Assembly: GCA_026394395.1 (NCBI GenBank)
Contig: JAPKYK010000002.1
Location: 183,653-247,652 of the forward strand
Direction of reading: 5' to 3'
From: Methanomassiliicoccales archaeon
GTDB taxonomy: Archaea; Thermoplasmatota; Thermoplasmata; Methanomassiliicoccales; UBA472
Length of the DNA: 64,000 bases
The position numbers and the translations under genes are program-made. Below, in pieces: positions 45,298-64,000 of this stretch. The notes below the pieces were generated by a model, which saw only the letters and a list, made by a program, of their open reading frames with translations, ran no database searches and was not told the DNA's origin. The stretch's first letter is position 1; each line of letters opens with the position of its first letter.

Positions 45298-47730
45298 ATG
45301 GGCAAGAGGATCCGCCTTTCCATGGTCGGCCGGGAGGGGGAGTTCGAGAAGTTCCAATCCCAGTTGGCCCAGGTCATTTCCGGTCGAGGCTCGACCATAT
45401 TCATCTACGGTGAGGCCGGCATCGGAAAGACCAGGCTAGTCGAGGAACTGGGTAAGTTCTGCGACATCACCGGATCCAAGATGCTGATCGGACACTGCCT
45501 GCCAGGAGCTCCCACACCATACCTTCCGTTCATGGAGGCCATGAGGGGCGAGGGGTTGAAAGGCGCGGACCGCTGCCGGGACCTGTGCGGCTCGCCGCCG
45601 GACAAGATAATGTTCGAACTACTGGACTGGTTGCGTTCCTTATCCGGGGCGTCCCCCTTAGTCCTGGTCCTGGAAGACCTTCATTGGGCCGACACCAGCA
45701 CGGTACAGCTGATGCACTTCCTAACCCGCAACATCGGGGACCTGAAGGTCCTGATGGTCGGCACGTTCCGGCCGGAGGAGATCGGCCCGGAAGGGGAATC
45801 TCCACATCCTCTGGCCGAAGCCCTTAGGGTCATACGGAGGGAGGGGGCCTGCCGCGAGATTGACCTAAAGCAGCTGCGGGAAGGGGATGTGGAGCAGCTC
45901 ATCAACCTGATGCTCTCCGGCCGCTGTCATCACAGCTTCGTGGACCTGGTGACCAAGGAGACCGGGGGGAACCCCCTCTTCGTCATCGAGGCTATCAACC
46001 TGCTCCTGCAGACCAAGGACCTGGAGAAGCAGGAAGGGTTCTGGAACGTGAAGGGTAGGACCGCCCTGGACGTCCCACCCACGGTCAGGGAGGTGGTCCT
46101 ACGGCGGGTCGAACGCCTGTCCAAGCCGCGCAAGCGCCTTCTGGAATGCGCCTCCGTGGTCGGCATGAACTTCGACATCGACACGCTGTCGGACATACTC
46201 GGTAACAACCGCCTGGAGGTCATCGAAGCGCTGGAGGAGCTGGAGAACCCTCATTCATTAGTATACTCGGTCCAGCAAGAGGACTTCGCCTTCAGCCACG
46301 AGGCGGTGATGCGGGCGGTCTACGAGAACATCAGCGAGATCAAGCGCAAGGAGCTGCACCACATGATCGCCCGGCGGCTGGAAGCCCGACCGCTGGGTCT
46401 GCAGGAGCGCTGCGCCCTGGCCTATCACCTAGACCGGGCGGGGGATGCCGATAAGGCCTATCCCCACCATCTCATCGCCGGGGAGGGCTGGCTCAGGTGT
46501 ATGGGCATATACGAGGCCGCCCCCCACTTCAAGATCGTGCTGGACCATACCAAGGAGCATCACGAACGCCTCACCGACCGGTTGAGAGCGCTCGAGGGCA
46601 TGGCCGACTGCTATTACAACGAGGGTGACTACCAGTCCGCCGACGACTTGCTAAAGGAGTTCATCGCCCTTTCCGGAAAGGACGCCATCTGCGCCCGCAT
46701 ACTGCGCAAGAGGGCGGAATGCTGGGGCCCGGCCCGCCTGGGCAAAGGGTCATCGGACACCTTCCTGCAGCTCCTGGACCAGGCGGAGGGCTGCCCCCTC
46801 ATCAATGATTTCGAACGTGGAGAGATCGCCTCGGACAGGGCCCTGCATTTCCTGTGGCAGGGGGACTACTTCTCCGCCAACCAGCACAGCCGGCTGTCCG
46901 AGGAATGGTTCGATAAGAGCGGTGATAAGGAACGCTACATGAGCCAGCTGCTGCAGCACATCTTCATCTACCTGTCCCTCGGGGACATGTCCCACGCCCA
47001 CGGCAACATCGACAGGGCCAACGAGGTGCAGAGGACGGTGGGCGGGAGAGTGGGGGAAGCGGAGATCAACTGTACGCTGGCGGAGATACTCCTGCAGGAG
47101 GGCAAGTACCGGGAGGCGCTGCAGGCCTTCGGCCGGGGCCGGGATATGACCGCGCAGTTAGGGGATCACATCGCCATGTGCTGGTGTCAGATCTACACGG
47201 CTCTGGCGCACCGCCTGCTGAGCGAACAGGAGGCGGCGGAGAAGGCGGCGGACCTGGCGGTGCAATACACGGAGGAGGTGGAGATTCCATACACAGTGGC
47301 CATGGCCCTGGGGGTGAGGGCCCTGGTCAAAATAGGGTTTAAAGCATTGGACGAAGCCAGGAAGGACCTGGAGAAGGCCGAGGGACTGATGCAGGGCATG
47401 AAGCCCGGGGTCAAGATGCAGGCCCCCGGGTTCGTGCGGGGGGTGAGGGCCCTGCTGACCGCCATGGACGGGAACGAGGCCGAGGATTATTTCGTCCAGT
47501 CCCTGAAGCTGTTGCAGGGGGCCATGACCAGTCTTCTGTGCGAAGCGCTGGTCCGCACCTGGTACGGGGAGGCACTGGAAAAATGGGGCCGCAAGGGCGA
47601 ATCGATAGAGCAGTACGAACGGGCCAATGGCCTGTTCATACTCCTTGGCAACCAGTCAGAGGGGTCCAAGGTCTCCCGGTCCTTGCGGCTACTGACCGCA
47701 CCGGAAGGGGAGGTGGTCATTGCCAAGTGA
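45298..47730 (+). CDS. STAND-class P-loop NTPase (AAA_16-like) with a long C-terminal TPR/helical-repeat sensor region
   Basis: 810 aa. Walker A FIYGEAGIGKTRL and Walker B LVLVLEDLHWAD are followed by a GGNPLF motif typical of MalT/AfsR/LuxR-type STAND ATPases. About 400 aa of helical repeats follow. No HTH or enzymatic effector domain was seen. Confidence 0.8.
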   Translation: MGKRIRLSMVGREGEFEKFQSQLAQVISGRGSTIFIYGEAGIGKTRLVEELGKFCDITGSKMLIGHCLPGAPTPYLPFMEAMRGEGLKGADRCRDLCGSPPDKIMFELLDWLRSLSGASPLVLVLEDLHWADTSTVQLMHFLTRNIGDLKVLMVGTFRPEEIGPEGESPHPLAEALRVIRREGACREIDLKQLREGDVEQLINLMLSGRCHHSFVDLVTKETGGNPLFVIEAINLLLQTKDLEKQEGFWNVKGRTALDVPPTVREVVLRRVERLSKPRKRLLECASVVGMNFDIDTLSDILGNNRLEVIEALEELENPHSLVYSVQQEDFAFSHEAVMRAVYENISEIKRKELHHMIARRLEARPLGLQERCALAYHLDRAGDADKAYPHHLIAGEGWLRCMGIYEAAPHFKIVLDHTKEHHERLTDRLRALEGMADCYYNEGDYQSADDLLKEFIALSGKDAICARILRKRAECWGPARLGKGSSDTFLQLLDQAEGCPLINDFERGEIASDRALHFLWQGDYFSANQHSRLSEEWFDKSGDKERYMSQLLQHIFIYLSLGDMSHAHGNIDRANEVQRTVGGRVGEAEINCTLAEILLQEGKYREALQAFGRGRDMTAQLGDHIAMCWCQIYTALAHRLLSEQEAAEKAADLAVQYTEEVEIPYTVAMALGVRALVKIGFKALDEARKDLEKAEGLMQGMKPGVKMQAPGFVRGVRALLTAMDGNEAEDYFVQSLKLLQGAMTSLLCEALVRTWYGEALEKWGRKGESIEQYERANGLFILLGNQSEGSKVSRSLRLLTAPEGEVVIAK

Positions 47731-50639: not shown

Positions 50640-52100
50640 GTGATTTTTACGAAGGGTAAGATAATAGCCTTAGTTCTGGTGATATTAATGGGCCTGAGCC
50701 TGGTGTCATTGGCGCCCGGGGCTCAGGCGGATACCGTGGATTGGGTTCTGGAAGGGCAAATTCCCGGGGAGAGGTCGGCTTTCGTCTGGGCAGAGCTTCC
50801 GGATGGACGCATCTTCATGGGTCTGGGATTCAACTCCTCTTCGTATCAATATAGAAACGACAGCTGGATATTGGACCCCTTCGAGATGACCTGGACAAGA
50901 ATGGCCGATGCGCCCTATGGTATGGTATCGACCACCGCAGCTTACCTTGAAGGCAAGGTGTACGTCTTCGGAGGGTTCGACTCAATCGTCGGTCCCACCA
51001 CCAACGTGCTGATCTACGACGTGGATGCGAATGCATGGAGCACCGGTCCGGCCTTGCCCGCCACAAGTTCTCACATGAAATGTGTCGCGGTCGACGAACG
51101 GCACATCCTGGTCGTCGGTGGCGAATCATCGAGCTGGGTAAAGTGCTACCTGTTCGATGTGGAAACCCAGATATTTAACACGGCCGATGATCTCCCGGAC
51201 GGCAGGGCCGGCGGAACATTGGTCACGGTCGCCGACATTGCATACTATTTTGGTGGATGGACGTCTGGCTATGTCACATCGGATAGCATATTTGGTTATG
51301 ACGTGGTCAATGACAATTGGTGGACCGCGGACGAGCTCCCAGAACCCATGGCCGGCATGGCCGGGGTACTTGGGAGCGATGGGCTGATCTACCTTCTTGG
51401 AGGAGCTCTGAACCCAGCGTGGGGTGGGGCGAACACAGAACAAGCCATCGCCTGGGACCCCGTTGACAAACAGTTCATCGACCTGCCCGATCTGGCCGAA
51501 CCATTGAGATTTGCGGCGCCCTTCGAACTGGCTGATGGCCGGATAATGTACTTCGGTGGCCACAACGATGACCTGGGCAATCAGAACGTCTACTCCATTA
51601 AGGCCTGGAATATCGAGGCTACCTTGGACTCCGACACCGTGGGGCAAGGGGAGAGCGCCTGGCTGAGCCTAAACATTCACACCAACTTCGCCAAGGTCAA
51701 TGATTTGTATGGTACCGTTTACCTGATGGCCATGGGCGTGACCTTCGCCACTTACTACATCGAATCTCAGGGGGGCATGGTCAGCCTGGAGATACCTATA
51801 TCTCAGGAGACGCAACCGCTCGGCTACGTATTGGTGTTCTCCGATGTTGGTTCTAACTGGGTGCAGGATTTCACCATTGAACCGTTGGCCCTGACGGTCA
51901 CGGACACCCCGTCCATGCAGGACCGCTTGAACGATCTGCAAGAACAGAACCATGCCTTGCAGGATCAGTTGAACGAGACGCGGGACGAGCTGAAGGAAGC
52001 GACGGACGCCAAACTGGACGCTATGATTGGCTACATAATATTGATCATAGCCCTGGGCGCCCTAGTGGTTGGCGTCATAATCCTAGTACGTAAGAAGTGA
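50640..52100 (+). CDS. Secreted Kelch-repeat beta-propeller protein with coiled-coil stalk and C-terminal TM anchor
   Basis: 486 aa with an N-terminal signal-like helix. Repeated GK/GR.Y.FGG and W motifs are Kelch blades. The C-terminal region has MQDRLNDLQEQNHALQDQLNETRDELKEA followed by IGYIILIIALGALVVGVIILVRKK. Confidence 0.8.
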   Translation: MIFTKGKIIALVLVILMGLSLVSLAPGAQADTVDWVLEGQIPGERSAFVWAELPDGRIFMGLGFNSSSYQYRNDSWILDPFEMTWTRMADAPYGMVSTTAAYLEGKVYVFGGFDSIVGPTTNVLIYDVDANAWSTGPALPATSSHMKCVAVDERHILVVGGESSSWVKCYLFDVETQIFNTADDLPDGRAGGTLVTVADIAYYFGGWTSGYVTSDSIFGYDVVNDNWWTADELPEPMAGMAGVLGSDGLIYLLGGALNPAWGGANTEQAIAWDPVDKQFIDLPDLAEPLRFAAPFELADGRIMYFGGHNDDLGNQNVYSIKAWNIEATLDSDTVGQGESAWLSLNIHTNFAKVNDLYGTVYLMAMGVTFATYYIESQGGMVSLEIPISQETQPLGYVLVFSDVGSNWVQDFTIEPLALTVTDTPSMQDRLNDLQEQNHALQDQLNETRDELKEATDAKLDAMIGYIILIIALGALVVGVIILVRKK

Positions 52101-52123: not shown

Positions 52124-53695
52124 TTATCCGTTCAACCAGGACACGATCCCCTGGATGTCCTTGGTGCCCGTGGGAATGGATAGTACAGTCTGGCTACGCG
52201 GTAGGATGACCCCTTTCCGCCACTCCCCCTCTACCAAGAAGAGGACCTTGGCGTCGAACGTAGACAACCTCCCGGACAAAGACAGTAGCTCCCCTTCCCG
52301 GCCGCCGGTCAGGTCTACGATGAGTCGCGCGGCCTTCAGTTCCTGAACGGACCGCATCGAAGAGACGAAAAGGACGGACTCCTCGGGCGTCACCAGGTGC
52401 GGCAGGAAGCCGAAAAGCTCCTGGTTCATGAGGTACAGGTGCTCCTTGACCTGGTAGACAACCTCCACGGTGTCCTTCTCCCGGTTCATCGTGCCGTAGA
52501 TCACGGATTGGCCAGCCGCGGAGAGCGCCTCGGCTACGGTCGCCTCCGGCGGCTTGGAATGATAATCGCCGCAATCAGAGAAAATGACCAGGTGTTTGAA
52601 GTCCTCCTTCCGCCGCACCTGGCCCAGGCGGTCGATGACCTCCTGATTTTTCAACGGCCTCAGCTTCCTGCGCACCTTCCTTTTGAACAGCAGGCGAGAG
52701 CGTTTGTCCCCTTTCAGGTACTCGTCGCGGAACATGCGAAAGCCTCGGGAGAACCGGCGCTCCTTGCGCATGGCGTTGCCCTTGCCGCCCTTTCCCTCCA
52801 GCTCCCGAGCTTGATTGATAAGATACTCGAAGCCCTTCAAACGTACGGTGATCCGTTCCACCTCGGGCGAGCCGGGGTCCTTTTGCAAGAGCGCCTCGAC
52901 CTCCCGACGCATCTGGTTGTAGTACGCCAGGGTCAGGTCGTTGAACCGCCAGGGCTGCCCGTGCTTCTTCTCGTAGCGCTCGCGGTTGCGCTCGAAGAGC
53001 GCTTGATAGTCCTTCTCCACCAGCTTCTTGAAGGACAGGCTGCCCTTGTGATAGATGAAGCATCCTTCGTTGATCACCAGGCGGTAGCCGGCCTTCTTCA
53101 CCCTCAGGCAATAATCGTCGTCCTCGAACATGCCTATGCTGAACTCTTCGTCCAGCAGCCCGACCTTGTCCAGGACGTCGCGACGCATTGCCACGCAGTA
53201 GAAGCCCAGCTTCTCCGTGTCGAAGAGATGCCCCTTGTTCTTCGCCGTGTAACGCCCGGCCACCTCCACATAGTTCTCTTCGTTAAGGGATGGGAGCATG
53301 ATCATCTGCTCATTCCCAGCAGAGTTAGTGACAGGGCACATCAGGCCGATGGAGCGGTCCCTCTCCAACGGCGTCAGCAGCGCGTCCAGCCAGCCCGGTG
53401 TCATCAATGTGTCGTTGTTCAACAGGACGATGCGGTCGCCGGTGGCCGCGCGCAGACCGTCGTTGTTCCCGCCAGCGTAGCCTTTGTTGCTCTCGTTCAG
53501 GACCACCTTGACGTTGCCATGCTCCTTCTCCACCGTGCGCAGGTAATCAGACGTGCCGTCGGTGGAGGCGTTGTCCACCAGGACCAGCTCGATATCGTCA
53601 GCGTTCGTGAACTTGAAGATGCTCTCGACGCAGGGGACGGTGCCCTCCTTCAGCTGGTTGTAGGTAAGGACCACTACGCTCGCTCTCATGGCCAC
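52124..53695 (-). CDS. Family 2 glycosyltransferase with a ~220-aa C-terminal extension of unknown function
   Basis: 523 aa; ASVVVLTYNQ...LVLVDNASTDGT...NKGYAGGNNDG...LLNNDT is a GT2 (GT-A) signature. Confidence 0.88.
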   Translation of the reverse strand: MAMRASVVVLTYNQLKEGTVPCVESIFKFTNADDIELVLVDNASTDGTSDYLRTVEKEHGNVKVVLNESNKGYAGGNNDGLRAATGDRIVLLNNDTLMTPGWLDALLTPLERDRSIGLMCPVTNSAGNEQMIMLPSLNEENYVEVAGRYTAKNKGHLFDTEKLGFYCVAMRRDVLDKVGLLDEEFSIGMFEDDDYCLRVKKAGYRLVINEGCFIYHKGSLSFKKLVEKDYQALFERNRERYEKKHGQPWRFNDLTLAYYNQMRREVEALLQKDPGSPEVERITVRLKGFEYLINQARELEGKGGKGNAMRKERRFSRGFRMFRDEYLKGDKRSRLLFKRKVRRKLRPLKNQEVIDRLGQVRRKEDFKHLVIFSDCGDYHSKPPEATVAEALSAAGQSVIYGTMNREKDTVEVVYQVKEHLYLMNQELFGFLPHLVTPEESVLFVSSMRSVQELKAARLIVDLTGGREGELLSLSGRLSTFDAKVLFLVEGEWRKGVILPRSQTVLSIPTGTKDIQGIVSWLNG

Positions 53696-53704
53696 CCTTC
53701 CCCA

Positions 53705-56482
53705 TCAATCCGTGTTCTTTAGAACCTTTCGCTTCCTCTGGCCGGACCGCTCCATCTCCTTCAGGTGGTTGGCGATGTCCAGGAAGCGCTGGTCCCAGGA
53801 GCTGTTCCGGGCCACCTCGATGCGCTTGGCCCTCAGGGCCTCGTCGTTTTCTCCTAATGCGGCCAGGATCCCCCTCTCGAACTCCGTGTCCCCCTCGTAA
53901 AGGTAGCAGACCTCGGCGTACCGCTCCATCTCCGGCAGCCGGACGCTTACGACAGGCTTGCCACTGCTGATGTACTCGTAGAACTTGACCGGGTTGGTGG
54001 CCATGGTCAGGGGGACCACCCGGAAGGGGATGATGCAGACGTCGAAGTAATAAAGGTAGCCGGGCAGGTCCTTGTACGGCAGCTCCCCCAGCAGATGGAC
54101 GTTGGACAACCGTTTCAGCCCGTTGACATCACAACCAAGGGTAGAGCCGATCAGCACGAAGTTCCATTCCGGATGCTTCTCCGCGCAACGGGCCACTACC
54201 TGCGGGTCGAACCATTCGGAGATGGCCCCGTGATAGCCGATTATCGGCCTCTTCAGGGAGTCGAGCTTGCCGTTCGGGAACAGGGTGTGGAACATGTTGA
54301 AGTCGGTGCCGTTGCGCACCAGTATGGTGCTATCGTTGAACGCCGCCGCCTTCTCGTAGAGCTTGGCCGAGCTGGTGACCACCAGATCGGCCTTCCCCAT
54401 GAGCTGCGTTTCCCGTTTCACCACCTCGGTGGCGTTGTTGCTGAAGCCGGCGTGGTCGTCCATGCAGTCGAAGATCAACGTGCCGGACACACGGGAACGG
54501 CACAGGTCGGCCAGCTGCCCCCATCCGGGGAACTGCACCAGGTAGGTGACGGACTTGGCGTCCAATCGTCTCAGCACGCCCAATAGCCCGTGCGCAACAT
54601 TGTTGAGGTCCGCCCCCCGGATACGATCCTGGTAGACGTTCAGCTTGTTGAAGGAGCTCAAACGGAGCTCGTAGATGTGCTCCCGCAGCTTGCCCAGGGT
54701 CACATCCTTCAACGCCTCGGCGTCGTTGAGGTACCGGGCGCCCTTCGGCGTCAGGTCCATGTGAACGAAGATGACCGTGTACCCGTTATCGGCGAAGCGC
54801 GACACCAGCTGCTGCGGTCTCTGCCAGCGGAACTCCCAGGGTATGACCGGGAAGACCACCAGGACCTTCCGTCCGTCGGCGTTGGCCTCCACCTCCTCGA
54901 GGTTGGACGGCTCTGAACGATAGAACATGCCCTGGACCTTGGAAGGGGCCAGCTGCAGGGTCACGCTCTTGAACGTGGCCACCAGGCCGTCGGACTTGAG
55001 CTTATCTACAGCCTGCTTCTGCAGGCGAGCGAACTTCTCTATCCTTCCGATGGAGGGGATGCTGTCCAGGAACTCCAGCCGCAGCTGCATGCTGCGGGCC
55101 CAGTCGGACATGGTCATGAGTTCGGCCTGCTTGGCCATGAAGCGGTCGGTCATGTCCTGCAGGCGGACGAACTGCTCATCGCGCTGTTGAATCGCCTCGG
55201 TGATGCTGGCCTCGGCCTCGGCCAGCTCGATGTCCTGCCGCGCCATGGCCTCCCGGGCGATCAGGAGGTCGTTCTGGCTGATGTTCAGTTCGTCCCTCAT
55301 TTGTTGGGAGAGAATCCTCTCTCCCTCCAGCTCATCGATCAGCTGATGATTGCGCTTCTTCACGTCCTCCAGTTCCCAGGTGGTCTGAACTAGGCGTTCC
55401 TTTTCCTTCTCCAGTTCCTTAATGAGCTGGAAGGCGTGGTCCCGTTCAAATTCCATCTGGGCCTGCACGGCCATCTTACGCAGCCTCTCTGATTCCAGAT
55501 CAACCCGCAAGGTGCCCAACAATCCGTCTTTATCTGCCAGTGACGTTTCGTAACGGACGATGGCGTCAGCCATCTCGCCTAATTTCTTTTCCTGGTTGTG
55601 GAGTTGATCATCTTGTAAACGGGCATTAAGCAGCATCTCGCTAAGAGCGGTCTTTGTAGCATCCAGCTCCAATCTGACAGAGTTTAGCTGTTGCTCCCGG
55701 TCTTGTAGGAAGGTTTGACTTGCCAGCTGATGAGACCTCTTACAATATTGCGGGGGAACCATGTGAGAACGGTCCTTTCCAAAAACCATGTCGATGAACT
55801 TTTCGCACGCCTCTCTATACACTCCCCACAAATCCTTGGGGATCTCTAATTCCATAAGGGCCTCTGGGAATGTCAGCAATGGTCCTAATCTCCGCTCTTG
55901 TTTCAGAAAGAGGACGTACAGGGCACGATATAGAACAAAAGACCGGGGGACATGGGAATCGAACACCCATTCGTGATCGGTTATCCAGTAACGCCCGCTC
56001 CCGTCAATGATAATATTATCGAAGGTCAAATCGAGGTTTGTCACGGGCATCAGGTCGATCAAGAAGGATTCTGGTACATCTTGGAGAAGTTCGTTCACGA
56101 ATCCTTCGATACTCGCCCTTCCATCCACAGATCCTAATGAAGCCAGATAGGTCTGGTACTTTTTAAGCAGACCGATCAAGCCTGCCCGATCGTTCCTCTT
56201 CGCCAGGGTTAGAAGGGCTTGCTCGAAGGAGGCACCTTCAATATAATCGAACTCCACGGCATCGTCTATTACAGTGCCCGATGGTATGTTGGCATCTGTC
56301 AGCTTATCCCTCAACAACTGACCGCCTCTAAAAATATTGATGATGTGAGGTATCCCTTCTGGTGAAAGAGCTCGTTTGAGGACCTTACGACCTTCAGACG
56401 TGGACAGGACGGTCGTTTCAGTACGGTACGAAGAAAGTCTTTCCCGATTGTACTTAATAAAGTCGATCCTTCGCTGGGTCAT
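53705..56482 (-). CDS. Tripartite protein: N-terminal protein-kinase-like domain, ~220-aa coiled coil, C-terminal GT-B (GT1/GT4-like) glycosyltransferase
   Basis: 925 aa. The N-terminal region has VLKR (beta3 Lys), FDYIEG (hinge), NLDLTFDNIII (catalytic-loop D..N) and YWITDHEW (metal-binding D), resembling APH/LPS-kinase/WbdD-type kinases. Residues ~260-480 are heptad-rich and low-complexity (Q/E/L/R). The C-terminal part has VLVVFPVIPWEFRWQRPQQL and a GT-B E..E region. Confidence 0.75.
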   Translation of the reverse strand: MTQRRIDFIKYNRERLSSYRTETTVLSTSEGRKVLKRALSPEGIPHIINIFRGGQLLRDKLTDANIPSGTVIDDAVEFDYIEGASFEQALLTLAKRNDRAGLIGLLKKYQTYLASLGSVDGRASIEGFVNELLQDVPESFLIDLMPVTNLDLTFDNIIIDGSGRYWITDHEWVFDSHVPRSFVLYRALYVLFLKQERRLGPLLTFPEALMELEIPKDLWGVYREACEKFIDMVFGKDRSHMVPPQYCKRSHQLASQTFLQDREQQLNSVRLELDATKTALSEMLLNARLQDDQLHNQEKKLGEMADAIVRYETSLADKDGLLGTLRVDLESERLRKMAVQAQMEFERDHAFQLIKELEKEKERLVQTTWELEDVKKRNHQLIDELEGERILSQQMRDELNISQNDLLIAREAMARQDIELAEAEASITEAIQQRDEQFVRLQDMTDRFMAKQAELMTMSDWARSMQLRLEFLDSIPSIGRIEKFARLQKQAVDKLKSDGLVATFKSVTLQLAPSKVQGMFYRSEPSNLEEVEANADGRKVLVVFPVIPWEFRWQRPQQLVSRFADNGYTVIFVHMDLTPKGARYLNDAEALKDVTLGKLREHIYELRLSSFNKLNVYQDRIRGADLNNVAHGLLGVLRRLDAKSVTYLVQFPGWGQLADLCRSRVSGTLIFDCMDDHAGFSNNATEVVKRETQLMGKADLVVTSSAKLYEKAAAFNDSTILVRNGTDFNMFHTLFPNGKLDSLKRPIIGYHGAISEWFDPQVVARCAEKHPEWNFVLIGSTLGCDVNGLKRLSNVHLLGELPYKDLPGYLYYFDVCIIPFRVVPLTMATNPVKFYEYISSGKPVVSVRLPEMERYAEVCYLYEGDTEFERGILAALGENDEALRAKRIEVARNSSWDQRFLDIANHLKEMERSGQRKRKVLKNTD

Positions 56483-56485
56483 GGT

Positions 56486-57382
56486 TTAACGCCTGCAGAA
56501 CACCAGGAATGAATTGGCCATCAGAGAGTATGCCCCGTTCATCAATAAGCTGTCGCACGTTAGACCCTCATCGAACAGGGCAAAGCGCTCCTGATCGTAG
56601 TTAGGTGACATTTTGCCCATATCGCCAATCGAAGGAAGTAAACGGTCGGAATAGATGCATTCTGGCAATTTGTAATCTGGATACGGATAATAGAACTCTA
56701 GGTCTGAGAACCCTGTCTCCACGAGCATATTTCTTATCTCTTCCCGTCCGAAAGTGCGAAATCCCTCCTCTCCAGGATATCCCTCCAATCCTTGGAACAG
56801 TACGCCAGAGTGGTCCTCCGGTGTCCCAGCCCAATATTTCAATCCCAGCTTGTTCTCTATGGCCAAGATCAAAGTACCGTTGTCCTTAAGCGCGGAAATG
56901 GCGTGTTTAAGCATTTCCTGATAGGGTTGGGGGGAACGTTGGTATATACCAGCGTATTCCAGGACACCAATCAGGGTGACGTAATCGAACCCCTTCAAGC
57001 CACCAATGTTGTCGAACTTGCCAGCGTATACGGTCAGGTTCTGCATCGTGCTGTGCCTGGCTGCTATGATGCTTGCCCGTCGCGGAGATATTTCCACGGC
57101 GGTCACCGAACGAACTTTTTCACAGAACAGGCCAGTTAGAGCTCCGCAGCCCGCACCAATTTCCAGCAACGACGCCTCCTTCGAGAAAGGGTACCATTCC
57201 AGAAGGTTCTTCCGTCGTTGGTCTAGATGATATAGTACAGCCCATCGCTGGTCATGGCGTATCGCATCTTCGAGATCGTTACCCGATCTCACCAAGGTGA
57301 GTATGTCCTCCTCAACATCACCATCAGAATATTGGTCCTGGTCGCTCACGTGGTCCAAGATCAATTTCGGTCCATTGTTCAT
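56486..57382 (-). CDS. Class I SAM-dependent methyltransferase
   Basis: 298 aa; LLEIGAGCGALTGLF is motif I. The stop is 3 nt upstream of the start of the kinase/coiled-coil/GT gene. Confidence 0.85.
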   Translation of the reverse strand: MNNGPKLILDHVSDQDQYSDGDVEEDILTLVRSGNDLEDAIRHDQRWAVLYHLDQRRKNLLEWYPFSKEASLLEIGAGCGALTGLFCEKVRSVTAVEISPRRASIIAARHSTMQNLTVYAGKFDNIGGLKGFDYVTLIGVLEYAGIYQRSPQPYQEMLKHAISALKDNGTLILAIENKLGLKYWAGTPEDHSGVLFQGLEGYPGEEGFRTFGREEIRNMLVETGFSDLEFYYPYPDYKLPECIYSDRLLPSIGDMGKMSPNYDQERFALFDEGLTCDSLLMNGAYSLMANSFLVFCRR

Positions 57383-57624
57383 AGAACCTTCACTCCCGGA
57401 GGTCTGAAGTTGTATTGTTGGAATTCATATGGTGATATATACTTATTGAAACCCGGGGAACTGGAATAAAATAATAAATGGGTTGGCGGGTCCGCTCAGC
57501 GGAAGATTGGAATTGCATAGAAAAGAGCTGTTTAATGATATCACTGGGGCATGGATCAAAGAAACTAATAATGAAACGATGTAAATCGTCATACATCAAG
57601 GCGACCTGTTCGATTATACTTTTT

Positions 57625-57728
57625 GGCTCTGACGCTAAACTGATGTTTCTATCAGAAATGATGGTTAGCCAGTTATTCTATATCATTCACTGGTAAGAGC
57701 TGTTGATATAGTTTGGCGTCAAAACCAT
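57625..57728 (+). repeat. Left copy of a ~104-bp inverted repeat (MITE-like unit with its own 16-bp terminal inverted repeats)
   Basis: 57625-57704 matches the reverse complement of 59314-59393 at 79/80 positions. The inner 24 nt match at 20/24. Unit ends: GGCTCTGACGCTAAAC (57625-57640) versus the reverse complement of 57711-57726, GGTTTTGACGCCAAAC. Confidence 0.9.
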
Positions 57729-57805
57729 TAAGGTTGAATTTGCCCATCATGAAGTCCGTTTCATTCAATTCGAAATGAGCAAAGAGGTCGAGCGGAGATA
57801 TTCAT

Positions 57806-59248
57806 ATGGAAGATAGGAAGGTAACCCGGGTCATTTCGGTCATGCTCTTATTAATGTTACTGTCTGGTTCGTTCCTCGTCATTGCTGGGGATACGGTATA
57901 TGCAGCCCAAGAAGGTGACTATACGTATACGATAGACGAAGGAATGGCCACCATAACAGGTTATACCGGCACGGGAAACAACATTACGATCCCCGACATG
58001 CTCGGAGGATGTCCTGTCGTGACCATCGGCAATAATTCCTTTTCTGGTCACGACTCCTTGACATCTGTGACCATCTCAGGCAATGTCACCACCATCGGAG
58101 AGGGTGCTTTCTCCGCCTGCCCCAACATAGTATCGGTGTTCATCCCGAGCAGCGTGAACACCATCGGCATGGGAGCGTTCCTGTATTGCTATGCCATGGA
58201 CTCGATAGATGTTGACGCGGCCAATCAGAACTTTACTAGCGTCGACGGGGTGCTCTACAACAAGAACGTGACAATCCTGATACAATTCCCGGGCGGAAAG
58301 GCTGGCGAGATGGTCATCCCTGAAAGCGTCACCTCCGTCGGTTCGAGAGCGTTCAACACCTGCCCGTTCCTGATCGGCATCACGATCTCCTGCAACGTGA
58401 CGACCATCGAGGAATATGCCATCGTCCAATGCGCATCTCTGAGATGGATCGATGTGAATGCATCGAACCCGTCCTTCGCCAGCGCCCTTGGCATGCTTTA
58501 TGATAAGAATTTAACGACCCTGATCCAATGCCCGGGCGGAGCGTCTGGCGAGCTGGAGATCCCTGAGAGCACGTCGGCCATCGGGAACTGGGCCTTCGCA
58601 TATTGCCCTTCATTGACCTCGGTCACCGTTCCCGGTAACGTAACGACCATCGGTTTCGGGGCGTTCCATTCCTGTACGTCCCTGACAACCATTACGTTCC
58701 TCGGTCTGGTGGCGCCGGTACTGGTCGGGGACCTGTGGATCGCGGAGACCGACCCGGAATTGCGGGGACACGCATACGCCGCCTCGAACTTCCCGATGCC
58801 TGGGGAAACCTTTTATGGACTGGAGATGGGAGAGGTCGTCCCGATCGTTCCCAGCGCACCTCTCGCAGTCTTTGCCGTTCCATATGATGGACATACCCTC
58901 TTAATGTGGGGGCCCCCCATCAGCGACGCGGGCTACGCCATCGCGAACTATTCGATCTATCGTTCGGTCGCAGACACCAGCAATTACAGTCTGATAGCCA
59001 TCGTCCCATGTTATGTTTATGTCTACAACGATACCAACCTGACCAAGGGAGAGATGTACTGGTACAAGCTCGCAGCCAACAATGTTAACGGCGAAGGCGT
59101 TCATAGCGTTGGCGTGTCCGTGACCATCCCTTTGGATGATGAGGCTACCAGCGTCAATCCTATCGTGATCTATGTGGCAGTGGTCGCGATTATCGCAATA
59201 CTGACCCTAATATTGCTTATGATGTATAAACGTAAGAATACGAATTAG
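57806..59248 (+). CDS. BspA-type leucine-rich-repeat surface protein with Fn3 domain and C-terminal TM anchor
   Basis: 480 aa with a signal-like N-terminus. Repeats of the type IP.SVT.IG..AF..C..L..I are LRR_5/BspA-like. An Fn3-like segment (PSAPL...W..P..D.GY.I..Y.IYR) follows. The end is IVIYVAVVAIIAILTLILLMMYKRKNTN. Confidence 0.85.
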   Translation: MEDRKVTRVISVMLLLMLLSGSFLVIAGDTVYAAQEGDYTYTIDEGMATITGYTGTGNNITIPDMLGGCPVVTIGNNSFSGHDSLTSVTISGNVTTIGEGAFSACPNIVSVFIPSSVNTIGMGAFLYCYAMDSIDVDAANQNFTSVDGVLYNKNVTILIQFPGGKAGEMVIPESVTSVGSRAFNTCPFLIGITISCNVTTIEEYAIVQCASLRWIDVNASNPSFASALGMLYDKNLTTLIQCPGGASGELEIPESTSAIGNWAFAYCPSLTSVTVPGNVTTIGFGAFHSCTSLTTITFLGLVAPVLVGDLWIAETDPELRGHAYAASNFPMPGETFYGLEMGEVVPIVPSAPLAVFAVPYDGHTLLMWGPPISDAGYAIANYSIYRSVADTSNYSLIAIVPCYVYVYNDTNLTKGEMYWYKLAANNVNGEGVHSVGVSVTIPLDDEATSVNPIVIYVAVVAIIAILTLILLMMYKRKNTN

Positions 59249-59289
59249 ACGATGATGGTCAAACACCTTCCATTTTCCTTTTATATACT

Positions 59290-59393
59290 ATGGCTTTGAC
59301 GCTAAACTCTATAAACAGCTCTTACCAGTGAATGATATAGAATAACTGGCTAACCATCATTTCTGATAGAAACATCAGTTTAGCGACAGAGCC
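59290..59393 (-). repeat. Right copy of the ~104-bp inverted repeat
   Basis: Reverse complement of the left copy, with a single mismatch in the outer 80 nt (59386 vs 57632). Ends: GGCTTTGACGCTAAAC (59292-59307) and GTTTAGCGACAGAGCC (59378-59393). Confidence 0.9.
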
Positions 59394-59445
59394 CTTTTTT
59401 ATTATCCGGATGTTTTATTAAATGATAACCAACCGGTCCATTCAT

Positions 59446-60990
59446 TTATCGAGGTTTGTAGACCCCAAAAAGCTCAGTGCCACGCCCTCCATTCTTAAAG
59501 TGATCGAGCTCAGCCTCCACCATTCGGACGATCAACTGACGGTCATCGAGGTTCTGGGCATTGTAATTGTCGTTATATGCGAGATTCAGTAAACGCCACA
59601 GGAAGCAATTTCTACGAAACACGTCTAATGGCTTGAACCATCGTTCTAACGTAGGCTCGATATCTTCGCTACGGATCCCTTCAAAACAACCCACTGAGTA
59701 ATCGTTGTCCGGAATTTCCGTATCCACAGTGCCAGTATTACGATTCAACCTGAATTTTTCTGGCAGCTCTTTAAATATCCCATTCGCTACGTCCAAAGCT
59801 TCCGGCCACAGTCGATTGCCATTCCTTCCCACATACTCTCCAATGCTCCAGAACTCACCATCATCGTTCAGACTTTTATGACAGAACTCAATTAGCTTTT
59901 CTAGTTCAACAATATGATGGAGCGCAGAGACACAAATGATGATGTCCCATTTTTCACCCGAATATTGTAAATCATTCGCGTCCGCTTCGATGAGATCAAG
60001 GCTCACCGTTGGAGCGAACTGTTTCGATGCCATGCAAAGTAGATCTGGATTAATATCGAGAAGCGACCATTCCACATTATTCCCTACGTGCGAAGCAAAA
60101 TCTGCTTCTATCCTGGCCGCTCCACTACACAATGACAGGACCTTCAGTGGCTTACCATTATCAGCTTTTAATTTCAATCGCCCTACGAAATCTGGGGCGG
60201 ACTCTGTGATGTTTGCAGCCAGCAAGCGCGACCCGTAGGCGTAAGGGGACTCATGAGAAAGCGGTCCGATGTGATTTAATCGATCTATCTGATATGGCAC
60301 AGCATTGATTTCACTACAATGCAATTTTCTAACTGGTCGGGCTTGACCTTGAGCTATGTTCGACCGTTCATCCTGCATTTGAGAATACATGGTGTGACGA
60401 TAGACATGACTAAAATGATCGATTTCATTGCGGGACCTCTGTTCGTGAAAGGTACGAGCTTTCATCAAAGATAACCGTTCTACTCTCGCAACGCATAGTT
60501 CGGCGATGGCGAGCCAATCCCCGATCGGATCATTTTTCGGCCCTGGAAGGCATTTAAAAATGAAATATCCTTGCCTACCCATTAAAAATGATACATCGAG
60601 ATGCGCTTCCCTCCATTGTGATGTCTGCTGACCACCGGAAATAGAGAAAGAAGCAATCATCTCCACATCTTTTCGTTTCTCTAATCGCTCAGAGAAGCTC
60701 ACTTCTAAGACCAAACCATCGCTACTGATTTTCGGTATCCCAGCACCATATCGGACATATAATTTCGTGTCTTTCTTAACTTTAATGCTCTTTGTGATCA
60801 CCAATTCTTCGCCAGCCAACAAGATCAACGATTGGCGCTTGTCGATGCAATGGGCGACCTGCATCCATCTTGGAAACATAACTCCATTCGGAGTTCCTGA
60901 GATCCGGAATGGTGATCCATCCTCGAGATAAAACTCATCCGAAAAGGAGCCCTTGCCATCATCGATTGCTTGAGTAGAAATATCGGTCAT
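59446..60990 (-). CDS. Class I SAM-dependent methyltransferase with ~250-aa N-terminal domain of unknown function
   Basis: 514 aa. VLSLCSGAARIE (motif I-like) and DIIICVSALHH sit in the C-terminal half. The gene lies in lower-GC DNA between wzt and the repeat-flanked cassette. Confidence 0.75.
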   Translation of the reverse strand: MTDISTQAIDDGKGSFSDEFYLEDGSPFRISGTPNGVMFPRWMQVAHCIDKRQSLILLAGEELVITKSIKVKKDTKLYVRYGAGIPKISSDGLVLEVSFSERLEKRKDVEMIASFSISGGQQTSQWREAHLDVSFLMGRQGYFIFKCLPGPKNDPIGDWLAIAELCVARVERLSLMKARTFHEQRSRNEIDHFSHVYRHTMYSQMQDERSNIAQGQARPVRKLHCSEINAVPYQIDRLNHIGPLSHESPYAYGSRLLAANITESAPDFVGRLKLKADNGKPLKVLSLCSGAARIEADFASHVGNNVEWSLLDINPDLLCMASKQFAPTVSLDLIEADANDLQYSGEKWDIIICVSALHHIVELEKLIEFCHKSLNDDGEFWSIGEYVGRNGNRLWPEALDVANGIFKELPEKFRLNRNTGTVDTEIPDNDYSVGCFEGIRSEDIEPTLERWFKPLDVFRRNCFLWRLLNLAYNDNYNAQNLDDRQLIVRMVEAELDHFKNGGRGTELFGVYKPR

Positions 60991-61056
60991 ATAATAATAT
61001 GAAAGATATCAAATTGCTTATTTAGAACATTTTAATGATATTAAGTTATTTTACAA

Positions 61057-62334
61057 TTATCCAATCCGTTCAATATTCATCTCCATACCCATGTCAAAAT
61101 AGCCCACGACGAACTTTGATGCAACCACTTGAAAAAAGAATATGTCATAGAGGCGATGATGCACAACAAACTCGCCCCGTTCGTCAAAACGGGTGCATCC
61201 CAGGGAAACAAGGTACTGCCCCCCCGCTAGCGTCATGGTCTGCCGGAAGGATACCACATACTCCTCTCCTTCGTGCAAGAGCGGTATATCCAGCATCTCA
61301 AATTGGGAGTTTGTTCCGGTCAGCTCGTTCCCCTTGATATCCTTGATGGTCAAAGCGAAAATGGGGGACTGCACATCTTCTTTGATACGGACGCGCATCT
61401 TGAACGTGCACTCCCTCTGCTTGATTACGGACTGGATTATGGCACCGTCTTCATCAAAGAGGCCGAAATCGACAATGCACATTTTTCTGTCCCCATAATC
61501 AAGTTTATTGGGGTTCAGGACCAGGCTTGATTTCCAAGGAACATCCTGAGACGTAGTAGATCGTTCCTCGATCTCCACCCCATCATCCGATTGGGTATGG
61601 AGGTTCACAGCGACCTTCTTGTATAGGTCGACCATACTTTTCGGGCTACCCTCGGCCAATTTCTTACCTTCGTGTAAAACCATCGCTCTATCACAGTACT
61701 TCAGCACGCTGTTCATGTCGTGCGTGACGAAAAGGATGGTCTTCCCGGCCTTCTTGAAGTCCTCGAACTTGCGGTAGCACTTGGCCTGGAAGTAGATGTC
61801 GCCCACGCTCAGCGCCTCGTCGACGATGAGAACCTCCGGGTCGACGTTGATAGCGAGCGCGAACGCCAGGCGAACGAACATGCCGCTGCTGTACGTTTTC
61901 ACCGGTTGGTCTATGAACTCCCCGATGTCGGCAAACTCCACGATGGCCGGGACCAGCTTCTCTATCTCCTGACGGCTCATCCCTTGCATGGTCCCATTGA
62001 GGAAGATGTTCTCCATGCCGGTCATCTCCGGATTGAAGCCCGCCCCCAGTTCTAGGAGCGCGGCCACTTTACCCTTCACCACGACCTCGCCGGAGGTCTG
62101 GTAGGACACCCCAGTCAATATCTTGAGCAATGTGGACTTGCCAGAACCGTTCCGGCCCAGTATCCCAACGGTCTCTCCCTGATGCACCACCAGGTCCACA
62201 CCTTCCAGGGCGTGGAAGTCCGTGTGGTACTTCCGGCGACGGGGGTCCAAGGCCTCCTTGGCCCGGTCCGACTGCTTCTTGTAGAGCCGATATACCTTCC
62301 CCACCCCCTTGATGGAAATAACCTCGTGGTCCAT
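61057..62334 (-). CDS. wzt: Polysaccharide/O-antigen-type ABC exporter ATP-binding protein with C-terminal Wzt-like carbohydrate-binding domain
   Basis: 425 aa. The N-terminal part is the TagH/Wzt type (Walker A GRNGSGKSTLLK, SSGMFVRLAFA, Walker B LIVDEALSVGD). An extra ~170-aa beta-rich C-terminal domain is present. Confidence 0.85.
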   Translation of the reverse strand: MDHEVISIKGVGKVYRLYKKQSDRAKEALDPRRRKYHTDFHALEGVDLVVHQGETVGILGRNGSGKSTLLKILTGVSYQTSGEVVVKGKVAALLELGAGFNPEMTGMENIFLNGTMQGMSRQEIEKLVPAIVEFADIGEFIDQPVKTYSSGMFVRLAFALAINVDPEVLIVDEALSVGDIYFQAKCYRKFEDFKKAGKTILFVTHDMNSVLKYCDRAMVLHEGKKLAEGSPKSMVDLYKKVAVNLHTQSDDGVEIEERSTTSQDVPWKSSLVLNPNKLDYGDRKMCIVDFGLFDEDGAIIQSVIKQRECTFKMRVRIKEDVQSPIFALTIKDIKGNELTGTNSQFEMLDIPLLHEGEEYVVSFRQTMTLAGGQYLVSLGCTRFDERGEFVVHHRLYDIFFFQVVASKFVVGYFDMGMEMNIERIG

Positions 62335-62343
62335 CAGTTCACC

Positions 62344-63135
62344 TCACAGCACGTCCGCCAGGTGCGGCCTCAGCTTTTGGAAGACTATGCTTCCGGCGAT
62401 CAGGAACACGATGGTCATGGCCCAGAAGATAACGGTGGCGAGCGGGTCCAAGGTGAACTCGCCTAAGATCGAGGTTCGATAGCCGTCGACCACGTAGGCC
62501 ATGGGGTTGATGAGCATGAGCCAGTGATACTCTTCCGGTATAGCGTTCTGCGACCACAGTATCGGCGTGAGATAGATTCCGAACTGCAGGATGATAGTAA
62601 GCATCTGCCGCATGTCCTTGAAGAACACCACGATGGATGATGTGAGGAAGCTAAGCCCCCAGACAAGTATGAATGTGCAAAATAGGTAGTATAGCACGCC
62701 AAGGGAAGAAAGATGCGCACCCTCTCCATAAATGACCAGGAAAATCACTAAGATAACGTGGAAGATGATGCTGGTGAGGAGCGAGGAAATGATCTTGACT
62801 GTAGGTAGGATCTCAACCTTGAAGACCATCTTCTTGACTAAGAACGAATACTGAGTGAGAGCATTAGTGGCATTGGACCAGGCGTCAGAGAAGAAGAACC
62901 AAGGAATGAGGCCGATAATGAACCATAGGACGAACGGCACACCCTCGACAGTGGTTATGCCGAGAGCGAACTCGAAGACGAACCAGAAGAGGAAGATCAG
63001 GCTCAGGGGCTGCAATATCTCCCAGAGCAGGCCGTAATAGGAGCCGACGTAGCGGGTGCGGAAGTCAGATTTGGTCAGGGAACGGATAAGTCCCAAGGAT
63101 CGAACATTTTCGCGAATGATGTCCTGCGCGCCCAT
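62344..63135 (-). CDS. wzm: ABC-2 type polysaccharide exporter permease
   Basis: 263 aa with six TM helices, immediately upstream of wzt. Confidence 0.85.
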   Translation of the reverse strand: MGAQDIIRENVRSLGLIRSLTKSDFRTRYVGSYYGLLWEILQPLSLIFLFWFVFEFALGITTVEGVPFVLWFIIGLIPWFFFSDAWSNATNALTQYSFLVKKMVFKVEILPTVKIISSLLTSIIFHVILVIFLVIYGEGAHLSSLGVLYYLFCTFILVWGLSFLTSSIVVFFKDMRQMLTIILQFGIYLTPILWSQNAIPEEYHWLMLINPMAYVVDGYRTSILGEFTLDPLATVIFWAMTIVFLIAGSIVFQKLRPHLADVL

Positions 63136-63241: not shown

Positions 63242-64000
63242 TCACCGCAACCTTCTGATCATTAACGTTATGGCAATGGCAGCAAGCGACACAACCAAAG
63301 TCCCTGATAGTACGTAGATAGGGGTATCTTCATAGGTATTGAACGGAGGGCCCACCGGGTTGGTTTTCACTTCCGAATGAGGAATATAGACAATCATCGC
63401 CTGTCCTCCAGTGGAATAGACGACCTCGTTCCGTCCTTCCGTTTGGCTCAAAATATTTTCAATTGGAGTGTAGGATTGACGAGAACTTCCATTATAATTT
63501 GTAGATATCGCCCAACCATTTTTTACATTCCAACTGGATAGGTATAGTAGGGCATCTGTTTGATTTTCCGTCCACTGATACCTGAGAATTTTAATATTGG
63601 TTCCTTCACCAGCGAAGATGGGAAATCTATGCCAATCAGCTGTCACTGGATAGTTGCCCCGATGATCTACATCACTGACCCATTTGGCTGATAGTACGTC
63701 AGAATCTGAGTATACGGACCAACTGGTATTTGGGTTGAGGGCGAATGAGTTGGTATAATGACCAGTCGCATAGTAAATAGTCCCAGTATTGAAGAGTAAA
63801 AATGTGATAAGAAAGATCGCCCCGGCCTTTTTTACGATTCCGTCACTAGCGAGCCTCGAGACGATGCTAATGTCACCAAGGTGCTTACCCCGGAAGAACG
63901 ACACAACAGCATATAGGCCAAGGATAAGGAATCCCGACAGAAATATGTAGGCCACCTGGAAGAACCGGGCGAAATAGAAGGAGTACGACAGGCGGGGTAT
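63242..64000 (-). CDS. C-terminal part of a large polytopic membrane protein with an extracytoplasmic domain (DUF2206-like / glycan-assembly associated); 5' end outside the window
   Basis: The frame stays open upstream of the track's GTG at 63955 to the window edge (...IPRLSYSFYFARFFQVAYIFLSGFLILG). It has hydrophobic helices, a ~170-aa soluble domain and a terminal TM helix (LSGTLVVSLAAIAITLMIRRLR). Confidence 0.6.
   Translation of the reverse strand: MPRLSYSFYFARFFQVAYIFLSGFLILGLYAVVSFFRGKHLGDISIVSRLASDGIVKKAGAIFLITFLLFNTGTIYYATGHYTNSFALNPNTSWSVYSDSDVLSAKWVSDVDHRGNYPVTADWHRFPIFAGEGTNIKILRYQWTENQTDALLYLSSWNVKNGWAISTNYNGSSRQSYTPIENILSQTEGRNEVVYSTGGQAMIVYIPHSEVKTNPVGPPFNTYEDTPIYVLSGTLVVSLAAIAITLMIRRLR

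Follow-up and report, generated by a model that had tools for sequence, protein, structure and literature searches.

What is the task of an archaeal protein in which a kinase-like domain, a long coiled coil and a glycosyltransferase (GT) follow one another in a single chain? The question is raised by a gene in a 64,000-nucleotide (nt) stretch of DNA, here called the window, from a Methanomassiliicoccales archaeon (GenBank assembly GCA_026394395.1, contig JAPKYK010000002.1, positions 183,653 to 247,652). The gene encodes 925 amino acid (aa) residues. It was read in an earlier note, together with the methyltransferase gene preceding it, as a split WbdD-like chain terminator joined to a polymerase-type glycosyltransferase. 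Our analysis indicates that the 925-aa gene is likely the scaffold of an ATP-binding cassette (ABC) transporter-dependent glycan assembly machine, and that this machine belongs to the terminator family of ORF6 of Klebsiella pneumoniae O7 (ORF6-O7).

The 925-aa gene is an uninterrupted open reading frame (ORF) with an ATG start at 53705-56482 on the minus strand, as given by the ORF list and its translation. The architecture described in the earlier note was confirmed over its whole length: kinase-like domain, coiled coil and GT4. Alignment A2 holds 19 full-length orthologues at 43-73% identity, and those at 57-71% include full-length proteins named Methanomassiliicoccales archaeon. The long ORF is supported because these 19 orthologues are conserved from residue ~4 onward. 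The gene call of the source collection, P0002 (622 aa, 100% identical), appears to begin at M304, so that aa 1-303 (55571-56482) are probably unannotated in the source record; if so, the missing part would probably take in all of the kinase domain and ~50 residues at the start of the coil. An orthologous locus (L001) was found in the metagenome-assembled genome (MAG) GCA_054813335.1. The genes around it share 65-89% identity with their window counterparts and are arranged compactly as DUF2206, Wzm, Wzt, methyltransferase, kinase-coil-GT4 and GT2.

The kinase domain and its place among known terminators

The N-terminal domain (aa 1-240; 55763-56482, minus strand) is predicted to adopt a protein-kinase fold with intact invariant catalytic residues. 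An exhaustive homologue search was carried out with aa 1-262 against 1.84 billion representative proteins and gave 1714 clusters at E ≤ 1e-3 and 572 at E ≤ 1e-10, while just 2 proteins were found when the N-domain alone was used in a word-indexed search. Identity to the query was 23-30% for the 65 diverse relatives in the kinase alignment, with one close relative at 58%. The sole invariant columns were K36, D151, N156, D169, E171 and W172. K36 lies in the motif VLKR, D151 and N156 in NLDLTFDN, and D169, E171 and W172 in TDHEW. The four kinase motifs pointed out in the earlier note are thus present, and with invariant columns in 65 relatives they go beyond a chance resemblance. The spacing D-x4-N-x12-D is the same as that of D166, N171 and D184 in protein kinase A (PKA).

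The AlphaFold2 model of aa 1-262, built from the 65-relative alignment (pLDDT 93.6, pTM 0.89), shows the bilobal fold with the β3 Lys, the catalytic-loop D-x4-N and the metal-binding Asp by which protein-kinase-like enzymes are recognised. Foldseek returned 191 PDB matches to this model at E ≤ 1e-3, and the best 50 were all protein-kinase-like enzymes. The fold matches include RIO kinases, APH(3′), macrolide phosphotransferases (Mph), homoserine kinase, LicA choline kinase and the CurKC kinase domain; some eukaryotic kinases were also among the best 50. The TM-scores of these matches are 0.4-0.5. The bilobal fold and the series K...D-x4-N...D are common to the window domain and to the small-molecule kinases APH(3′), Mph, LicA, RIO and CurKC. 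However, the structural identity to these enzymes is merely 10-16% at TM 0.4-0.5, there is no match at the sequence level, and the motif D-x-E-W-V-F is specific to the window kinase family. No Pfam or NCBIfam model matched residues 1-260 of the 925-aa protein. The kinase domain was likewise left without any family when 65 relatives were scanned with Pfam, where the tails gave coiled-coil noise only, and when 12 relatives were scanned with NCBIfam. Single-sequence and profile searches of all PDB chains with the kinase domain matched no kinase. The earlier note had named a non-kinase fold and poor conservation of the catalytic-loop Asp and Asn as the observations that would count against its assignment. 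Since the models give a kinase fold and both residues are invariant, neither was encountered.

The characterised relative is ORF6-O7, a 1414-aa protein described by Kelly et al. (J Biol Chem 2024, PMC11231755), in which a methyltransferase and a kinase are followed by an immunoglobulin (Ig)-like module, a coiled coil and a pair of GT2 modules. Its kinase is a previously unannotated 223-aa domain, its GT2 modules are rhamnosyltransferases, and it installs a terminal methylphosphate (PMC11231755). The phosphate of the O7 system sits on the terminal sugar and is required for export; with the D441A substitution, phosphorylation was lost in vitro, and termination and export were lost in vivo (PMC11231755). 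Homologues of ORF6-O7 were also reported in the archaeon Methanoculleus marisnigri (PMC11231755). The ORF6-O7 sequence was recovered by deducing a peptide from the mutagenesis primers of that paper, back-translating it and scanning metagenome contigs, which gave a single match, L085. The ORF at L085:5755-9999 encodes 1414 aa, has exact primer matches and holds all residues numbered in the paper (Y28, Y66, G91, G93, E112, Y158, D441, T766, D975, D977, D978, N1230 and D1232).

In hhalign comparisons, the methyltransferase family aligned with ORF6-O7 aa 27-320 (probability 100%, E 7.7e-55, 37% identity), and the kinase family of 65 sequences aligned with aa 328-545 (probability 95%, E 3.6e-8, 204 columns). 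Residues Y28, Y66, G91, G93, E112 and Y158 of the S-adenosylmethionine (SAM) site of ORF6-O7 correspond to Y18, Y51, G76, G78, E97 and Y143 of the window methyltransferase. BLASTP of the 925-aa protein against ORF6-O7 gave 30% identity over 99 residues and paired D151, N156, D169, E171 and W172 with D441, N446, D459, E461 and W462. The window Wzt is 36% identical by BLASTP to the Wzt encoded directly upstream of ORF6-O7, over the full length including the binding domain. From these homologies of methyltransferase, kinase and Wzt, the window system is therefore placed in the ORF6-O7-type terminator family, of which it is an archaeal member with a split methyltransferase and a single GT4. The two systems are alike in the gene order wzt, methyltransferase, kinase, in the coiled coil that follows the terminator domains, in the terminator placed distally on the coil with the glycosyltransferase modules at the opposite end, and in a Wzm/Wzt exporter whose Wzt has a carbohydrate-binding domain. 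They differ in that the window methyltransferase is on its own ORF and in that the host is an archaeon instead of K. pneumoniae.

The glycine-rich loop and the αC glutamate were not identified in the 65-relative alignment, where H46 is a conserved residue of the first helix, and one might suppose from this that the N-terminal domain is a dead pseudokinase which binds only glycan or nucleotide. We consider this highly improbable. The catalytic-loop Asp and Asn, the metal-binding Asp and the β3 Lys are invariant in the 65 diverse relatives, and the residues align with those of the active ORF6-O7 enzyme, D441 included.

A descent from WbdD, as the earlier note had it, requires a different weighing. 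WbdD of Escherichia coli O9a and K. pneumoniae O3 resembles the window system in a cap made by kinase and methyltransferase, a coiled-coil ruler and export gated by the carbohydrate-binding module (CBM) of Wzt (PMC3482155). Its order of methyltransferase, kinase and coiled coil is met in the window across two adjacent ORFs. Were the two genes a WbdD orthologue of the O9a/O3 lineage whose methyltransferase and kinase have become separated, this order and the Wzm/Wzt-CBM context, as in O9a, would both be accounted for; we see scarcely any likelihood of it. Structures of WbdD are deposited in the PDB (PMC3482155). Sequence and profile searches of PDB chains gave no match to WbdD or to PDB kinases, either for the kinase domain or for P0025, a 560-aa protein in which a methyltransferase is N-terminal to the kinase domain. 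WbdD was not among the best 50 of the 191 Foldseek matches to the kinase-domain model. The best PDB matches of the methyltransferase profile were generic class I enzymes, and WbdD was not among the 60 profile matches listed, nor among the PDB matches listed for the methyltransferase as a single sequence. The homology to ORF6-O7 is clear, and the kinase of ORF6-O7 was called "quite different" from WbdD, in its sequence as well as its structure (PMC11231755). There is also no detectable sequence relationship between the window protein and WbdD, and WbdD recruits a separate polymerase (WbdA), in contrast to the fused glycosyltransferase of the window protein. On the present data the kinase domain is grouped with ORF6-O7 and not with WbdD. 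The proposed domain order and terminator context have thus held up, whereas the WbdD lineage has not.

WbbB of K. pneumoniae O12 is similar in another respect, as a terminator, a coiled-coil ruler and glycosyltransferase modules follow one another in one polypeptide (PMC11231755). The terminator of WbbB is a GT99 Kdo-transferase, which is combined with two polymerase GT modules, whereas that of the window protein is a kinase. Pfam and NCBIfam scans of the 925-aa protein found no GT99 module, and its N-terminus has the kinase fold.

The methyltransferase partner across related loci

The ORF directly upstream of the 925-aa gene encodes 298 aa (56486-57382, minus strand) and was identified by Pfam methyltransferase domains as a class I SAM methyltransferase. 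The junction of the two genes reads TAA, ACC, ATG; the spacer is therefore exactly 3 nt, in agreement with the gap reported in the earlier note. Over its entire length the window methyltransferase shares 45% identity with the corresponding half of the fusion protein P0025.

Linkage between the two partners was examined in 80 bacterial loci from species-representative genomes, which were found via the DYEWVFD motif of a 12-sequence alignment; 216 relatives were confirmed. Counts were made with locally built hidden Markov models (HMMs) over 84 loci that carry the kinase domain, or over 85 loci for Wzt_C, and the loci counted were also the ones from which the methyltransferase and Wzt_C HMMs had been built by iteration. 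The bacterial loci came mainly from Lachnospiraceae and other Clostridia, with further hosts in Campylobacterales, Deltaproteobacteria, Gammaproteobacteria, Omnitrophota, Spirochaetes and Chloroflexi; as the loci were chosen by one motif variant, these taxonomic proportions are biased toward Clostridia.

The methyltransferase was fused N-terminally to the kinase in one ORF in 35 of the 84 loci and was encoded immediately upstream on the same strand, with a gap of -19 to +94 nt, in 43, so that it was fused or directly upstream in 78. It lay ~7 kb away in one locus and was absent from five, and in four of these five the kinase gene is at the contig edge. The methyltransferase is an obligate partner of the kinase domain. 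The co-occurrence that the earlier note had proposed as a check is therefore found, and the split partner in the window keeps the order methyltransferase-kinase-coil across its two ORFs. A Wzt_C homologue was found in 73 of 85 loci, as a rule no more than 1 kb away and typically just upstream of the methyltransferase.

The commonest architecture was kinase with a tail (21/84 loci). It was followed by kinase, tail, GT2 and GT4 (16/84), methyltransferase, kinase and tail (16/84), and methyltransferase, kinase, tail, GT2 and GT4 (14/84). Kinase, tail and GT2 were joined in 8/84 loci and methyltransferase and kinase in 5/84; the kinase stood alone in 2/84. Kinase, tail and GT4 were found only in the window and L001 (2/84). 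As glycosyltransferase modules follow the coil in 40 of the 84 loci, the fusion of terminator, coil and glycosyltransferase is common. The same combination was shown for ORF6-O7 in 2024, and the opinion in the earlier note that it looks unusual can no longer be held.

Several features of individual relatives were also recorded. The window methyltransferase is 40-50% identical to bacterial homologues (Clostridia, Campylobacterales and others; L006-L084), and the adjacent kinase domain merely 22-33%, which may mean that the two partners are under very unequal constraint or that the module came from bacteria. The methyltransferase homologue at L004:2411-3232 has a degenerate SAM motif, GADYGALTG in place of GAGCGALTG, and no Pfam match; the subgroup with this degenerate motif is the 1042-aa Lachnospiraceae group, e.g. 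L011, L014 and L017. Such a methyltransferase may be inactive, which would leave a phosphate-only cap. The sole locus with intact upstream sequence and yet no methyltransferase homologue is that of a Deltaproteobacteria MAG with a 1125-aa kinase ORF (L005:9983-13360), possibly a kinase-only terminator. Two further long kinase ORFs, L023:7148-11320 (1390 aa) and L034:9980-12502 (840 aa), carry behind the coil C-terminal modules that match no GT2 or GT4 probe.

The coiled coil and the glycosyltransferase end

In the full-length AlphaFold model (pLDDT 73), a single continuous helix of 219 residues (aa 256-474; 55061-55717, minus strand) is followed by four short helices and then by the glycosyltransferase. 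Proline is absent from the helix segment, and glycine occurs only four times. The hydrophobicity spectrum of the segment has peaks at periods of 7 (z = 2.8), 3.5 (z = 5.1) and 2.33 (z = 13.0 relative to 2000 shuffles, as for the other two), with low power at periods 3.0, 3.6 and 4.0. The central coiled coil seen in the earlier note is borne out by the single helix, the lack of proline and these heptad harmonics of up to z = 13. At the standard rise per residue, 219 residues would measure ~32 nm if fully extended, and we regard the segment as a putative coiled-coil molecular ruler.

The length of the coil was compared among 18 orthologues as the distance from FIDxVFG (aa 229, close to where the kinase domain ends) to AELMTMSDW, which lies after the coil. 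Spacers of 154, 172, 189, 196, 203, 217, 224, 231 and 245 residues were found, and all values except the outlier 172 are whole heptads apart. The catalytic domains flanking the coil are constant in length among the orthologues, and the sequence C-terminal to the AELMTMSDW anchor is 460-483 residues long, in contrast to the variable coil. Steps of whole heptads are expected if the register is kept while the spacing is tuned, and this variation in length would fit a role as ruler or spacer.

The kinase and methyltransferase might instead only decorate internal residues, a lipid or an adaptor, with the coil serving for oligomerisation or as a scaffold and not as a ruler. Such a reading is helped by control of chain length and a cap being predictions for the window system, and by five relatives with methyltransferase and kinase almost without a coil tail and two more kinase domains of the same kind; the coil is therefore not obligatory for the enzymatic pair. 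It is opposed by the tight linkage to a Wzt with a cap-reading Wzt_C domain, by the position of the phosphate on the terminal sugar of the characterised homologue, where it is required for export (PMC11231755), and by the change of the coil in whole heptads between constant catalytic ends, which fits selection on spacing. Taken together, we think decoration alone rather improbable, and a terminator held at a distance by the coil is the reading followed here.

The extreme C-terminal end of the coil, directly before the linker, is the highly conserved KQAELMTMSDWARSMQLRLEFL (aa 451-472). The linker of short helices between coil and glycosyltransferase occupies aa 475-538 (54869-55060, minus strand) in the secondary structure predicted by AlphaFold. 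The slightly longer segment aa 451-476 (KQAELMTMSDWARSMQLRLEFLDSIP, 55055-55132) is nearly invariant among orthologues despite low AlphaFold confidence, and a basic RKRKVL C-terminal tail (53708-53746) is also conserved among the 925-aa orthologues. Either of them could be an element that contacts the membrane or a partner.

The C-terminal part of the protein (aa 539-912; 53747-54868, minus strand) is a GT-B glycosyltransferase of the GT4 type (TuaH-like); the GT-B assignment agrees with the earlier note. Pfam Glyco_trans_1_4 (PF13692) matched at aa 761-854 above the gathering score, and a TuaH-like NCBIfam model matched at aa 634-905 with E 5.7e-27, which is below its curated cutoff. Foldseek searches with the full-length model found as best matches the retaining GT4 enzymes MshA, BshA, GlgM, PimA and PglA, and also the methylmannose-polysaccharide mannosyltransferase ManT, with E down to 5e-14 and target-normalised TM-scores up to 0.68. 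The module has the two Rossmann-like domains and the Glycos_transf_1-type C-terminal domain that define the class, and the motif NPVKFYEY, which includes K833 and E836, is invariant among orthologues.

A separate 523-aa GT2 glycosyltransferase (52124-53695, minus strand; PF00535, E 3e-26) is encoded in the same operon ~10-16 nt downstream of the stop of the 925-aa gene. It is in the same position in L001, with 65% identity to its counterpart, and is likely a second glycan-building enzyme. Its similarity to the GT2 modules of ORF6-O7 is generic (25% identity); therefore no sugar specificity can be transferred from ORF6-O7. Adjoining this gene is a Kelch-repeat β-propeller protein gene (50640-52100, plus strand), which has the same position in L001 and is 32% identical there.

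A polymerase-type role of the GT4 module is suggested by its position on the coil. The fused GT4 could otherwise act as an adaptor, priming or terminal-residue transferase, with polymerisation left to the downstream GT2 and to enzymes beyond the end of the window. For this speaks the single fused module, where the characterised ruler proteins of O7 and O12 have two (PMC11231755), and three more glycosyltransferase genes are found near L001. However, the membrane-proximal modules at the coil end are polymerase components in all characterised systems (PMC11231755), and the GT2 gene is translationally close-coupled with conserved position. We hold a non-polymerase GT4 to be unlikely, though by a smaller measure than the other alternatives, and retain the GT4 as a putative polymerase component.

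Export genes and the proposed assembly mechanism

Further upstream in the window, also on the minus strand, are the genes of an ABC exporter. Wzt (61057-62334) is an ABC-transporter ATPase with an ABC_tran domain and the C-terminal carbohydrate-binding domain Wzt_C (PF14524, E 2e-37), and it matched Aquifex Wzt in the PDB with E 1e-80. Wzm (62344-63135) is an ABC-2 permease (PF01061), 80% identical to the Wzm of L001. This context with a Wzt_C domain agrees with the role of chain terminator that the earlier note had assigned. The C-terminal part of a DUF2206 membrane protein (63242-64000; PF09971) follows as a conserved wzm neighbour with the same position in L001. In tblastn, the 796-aa L001 protein (L001:4487-6877) was matched as far as base 64000, and a broken DUF2206 gene at the window end was rejected, because the gene runs off the window. 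The DUF2206 protein is a candidate for taking charge of the glycan once it has been exported across the membrane.

Two genes between wzt and the methyltransferase gene (57383-61056) are missing from the compact L001 operon. One encodes a surface protein with BspA-type leucine-rich repeats that is anchored in the membrane at its C-terminus (57806-59248, plus strand). The other encodes a 514-aa protein (59446-60990, minus strand) in which a methyltransferase domain covers just aa 274-380 and the N-terminal half has no assignment. Elsewhere in the window are genes for an 810-aa STAND-type AAA ATPase with TPR repeats (45298-47730) and for an eRF1-type release factor, which agrees with an archaeal host, and a 2455-aa ORF (19492-26859).

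From the homology to ORF6-O7 and the gene context, the following mechanism is proposed. The GT4 module, probably with the downstream GT2, would extend a lipid-linked glycan at the membrane, while the 219-residue coiled coil would hold the kinase domain at a fixed distance of ~30 nm. When the chain reaches that distance, the kinase would phosphorylate the non-reducing terminal sugar with ATP; in this reaction D151 would act as catalytic base, N156 and D169 as ligands of Mg2+, and K36 as the contact for the ATP phosphates. The separately encoded methyltransferase would then methylate the terminal phosphate, and the methylphosphate cap would stop elongation. The cap would be read by the carbohydrate-binding domain of Wzt, and the finished chain would be exported via Wzm/Wzt. 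We infer both the formation of the methylphosphate cap and the dependence of export on termination from the O7 system.

Several points weigh against this assignment. The kinase homology to ORF6-O7 is remote, with 23% identity in the profile alignment, and it is weakest in the N-lobe; pairwise BLAST aligns only the C-lobe. The Ig-like (CBM-like) module that follows the ORF6-O7 kinase is absent from the window protein, and there is no room for it between the end of the kinase domain at ~240 and the start of the helix at 256. The Ig-like module of ORF6-O7 was not demonstrated to be essential (PMC11231755). A single GT4 (GT-B) replaces the two GT2 modules of ORF6-O7, and the GT2 of the window is encoded on its own downstream; polymer and acceptor sugar therefore probably differ from those of O7. 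The coil itself is seen in a monomer AlphaFold model at modest confidence (pLDDT 55-70), and it is a 219-aa helix, probably far longer than the coil of ORF6-O7, in which the one heptad-like stretch inspected just precedes residue 766, the start of the GT construct used in that paper. No membrane-binding element was identified in the 925-aa protein, and its attachment to the membrane is presumed in the mechanism. The second protein with a methyltransferase domain (59446-60990) could modify the glycan differently, and in the source organism the system is known through sequence and models alone.

A wider reading, which we put forward tentatively and with less than even confidence, is that these loci represent a widespread class of length-controlled, methylphosphate-capped surface glycans with a common kinase signature, heptad tuning and attachment through DUF2206. 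Its hosts would include gut Clostridia, mostly Lachnospiraceae, together with Campylobacterales, other bacteria and Methanomassiliicoccales, which have no lipopolysaccharide. The kinase domain with K36, D151, N156, D169, E171 and W172, as yet unmodelled, would be the diagnostic signature of the class, and coils that differ naturally by whole heptads, from 154 to 245 residues in close archaeal orthologues, would adjust chain length from one strain to the next.

The family is known and appears to be widespread, common in gut Clostridia and present in Methanomassiliicoccales; it was first demonstrated in Klebsiella in 2024, and no new principle is revealed by the archaeal member. What is gained is a sequence signature for a kinase domain that has no Pfam or NCBIfam model. 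The orthologues with their heptad-quantised series of lengths provide a natural experiment for the molecular-ruler idea. The bacterial mechanism of capping, measuring and exporting a glycan would be extended to methanogen-related gut archaea and likewise to hundreds of Gram-positive gut species. If the exported archaeal glycan is indeed passed to the conserved DUF2206 membrane protein for attachment, an O-antigen-like pathway would exist in an archaeon.

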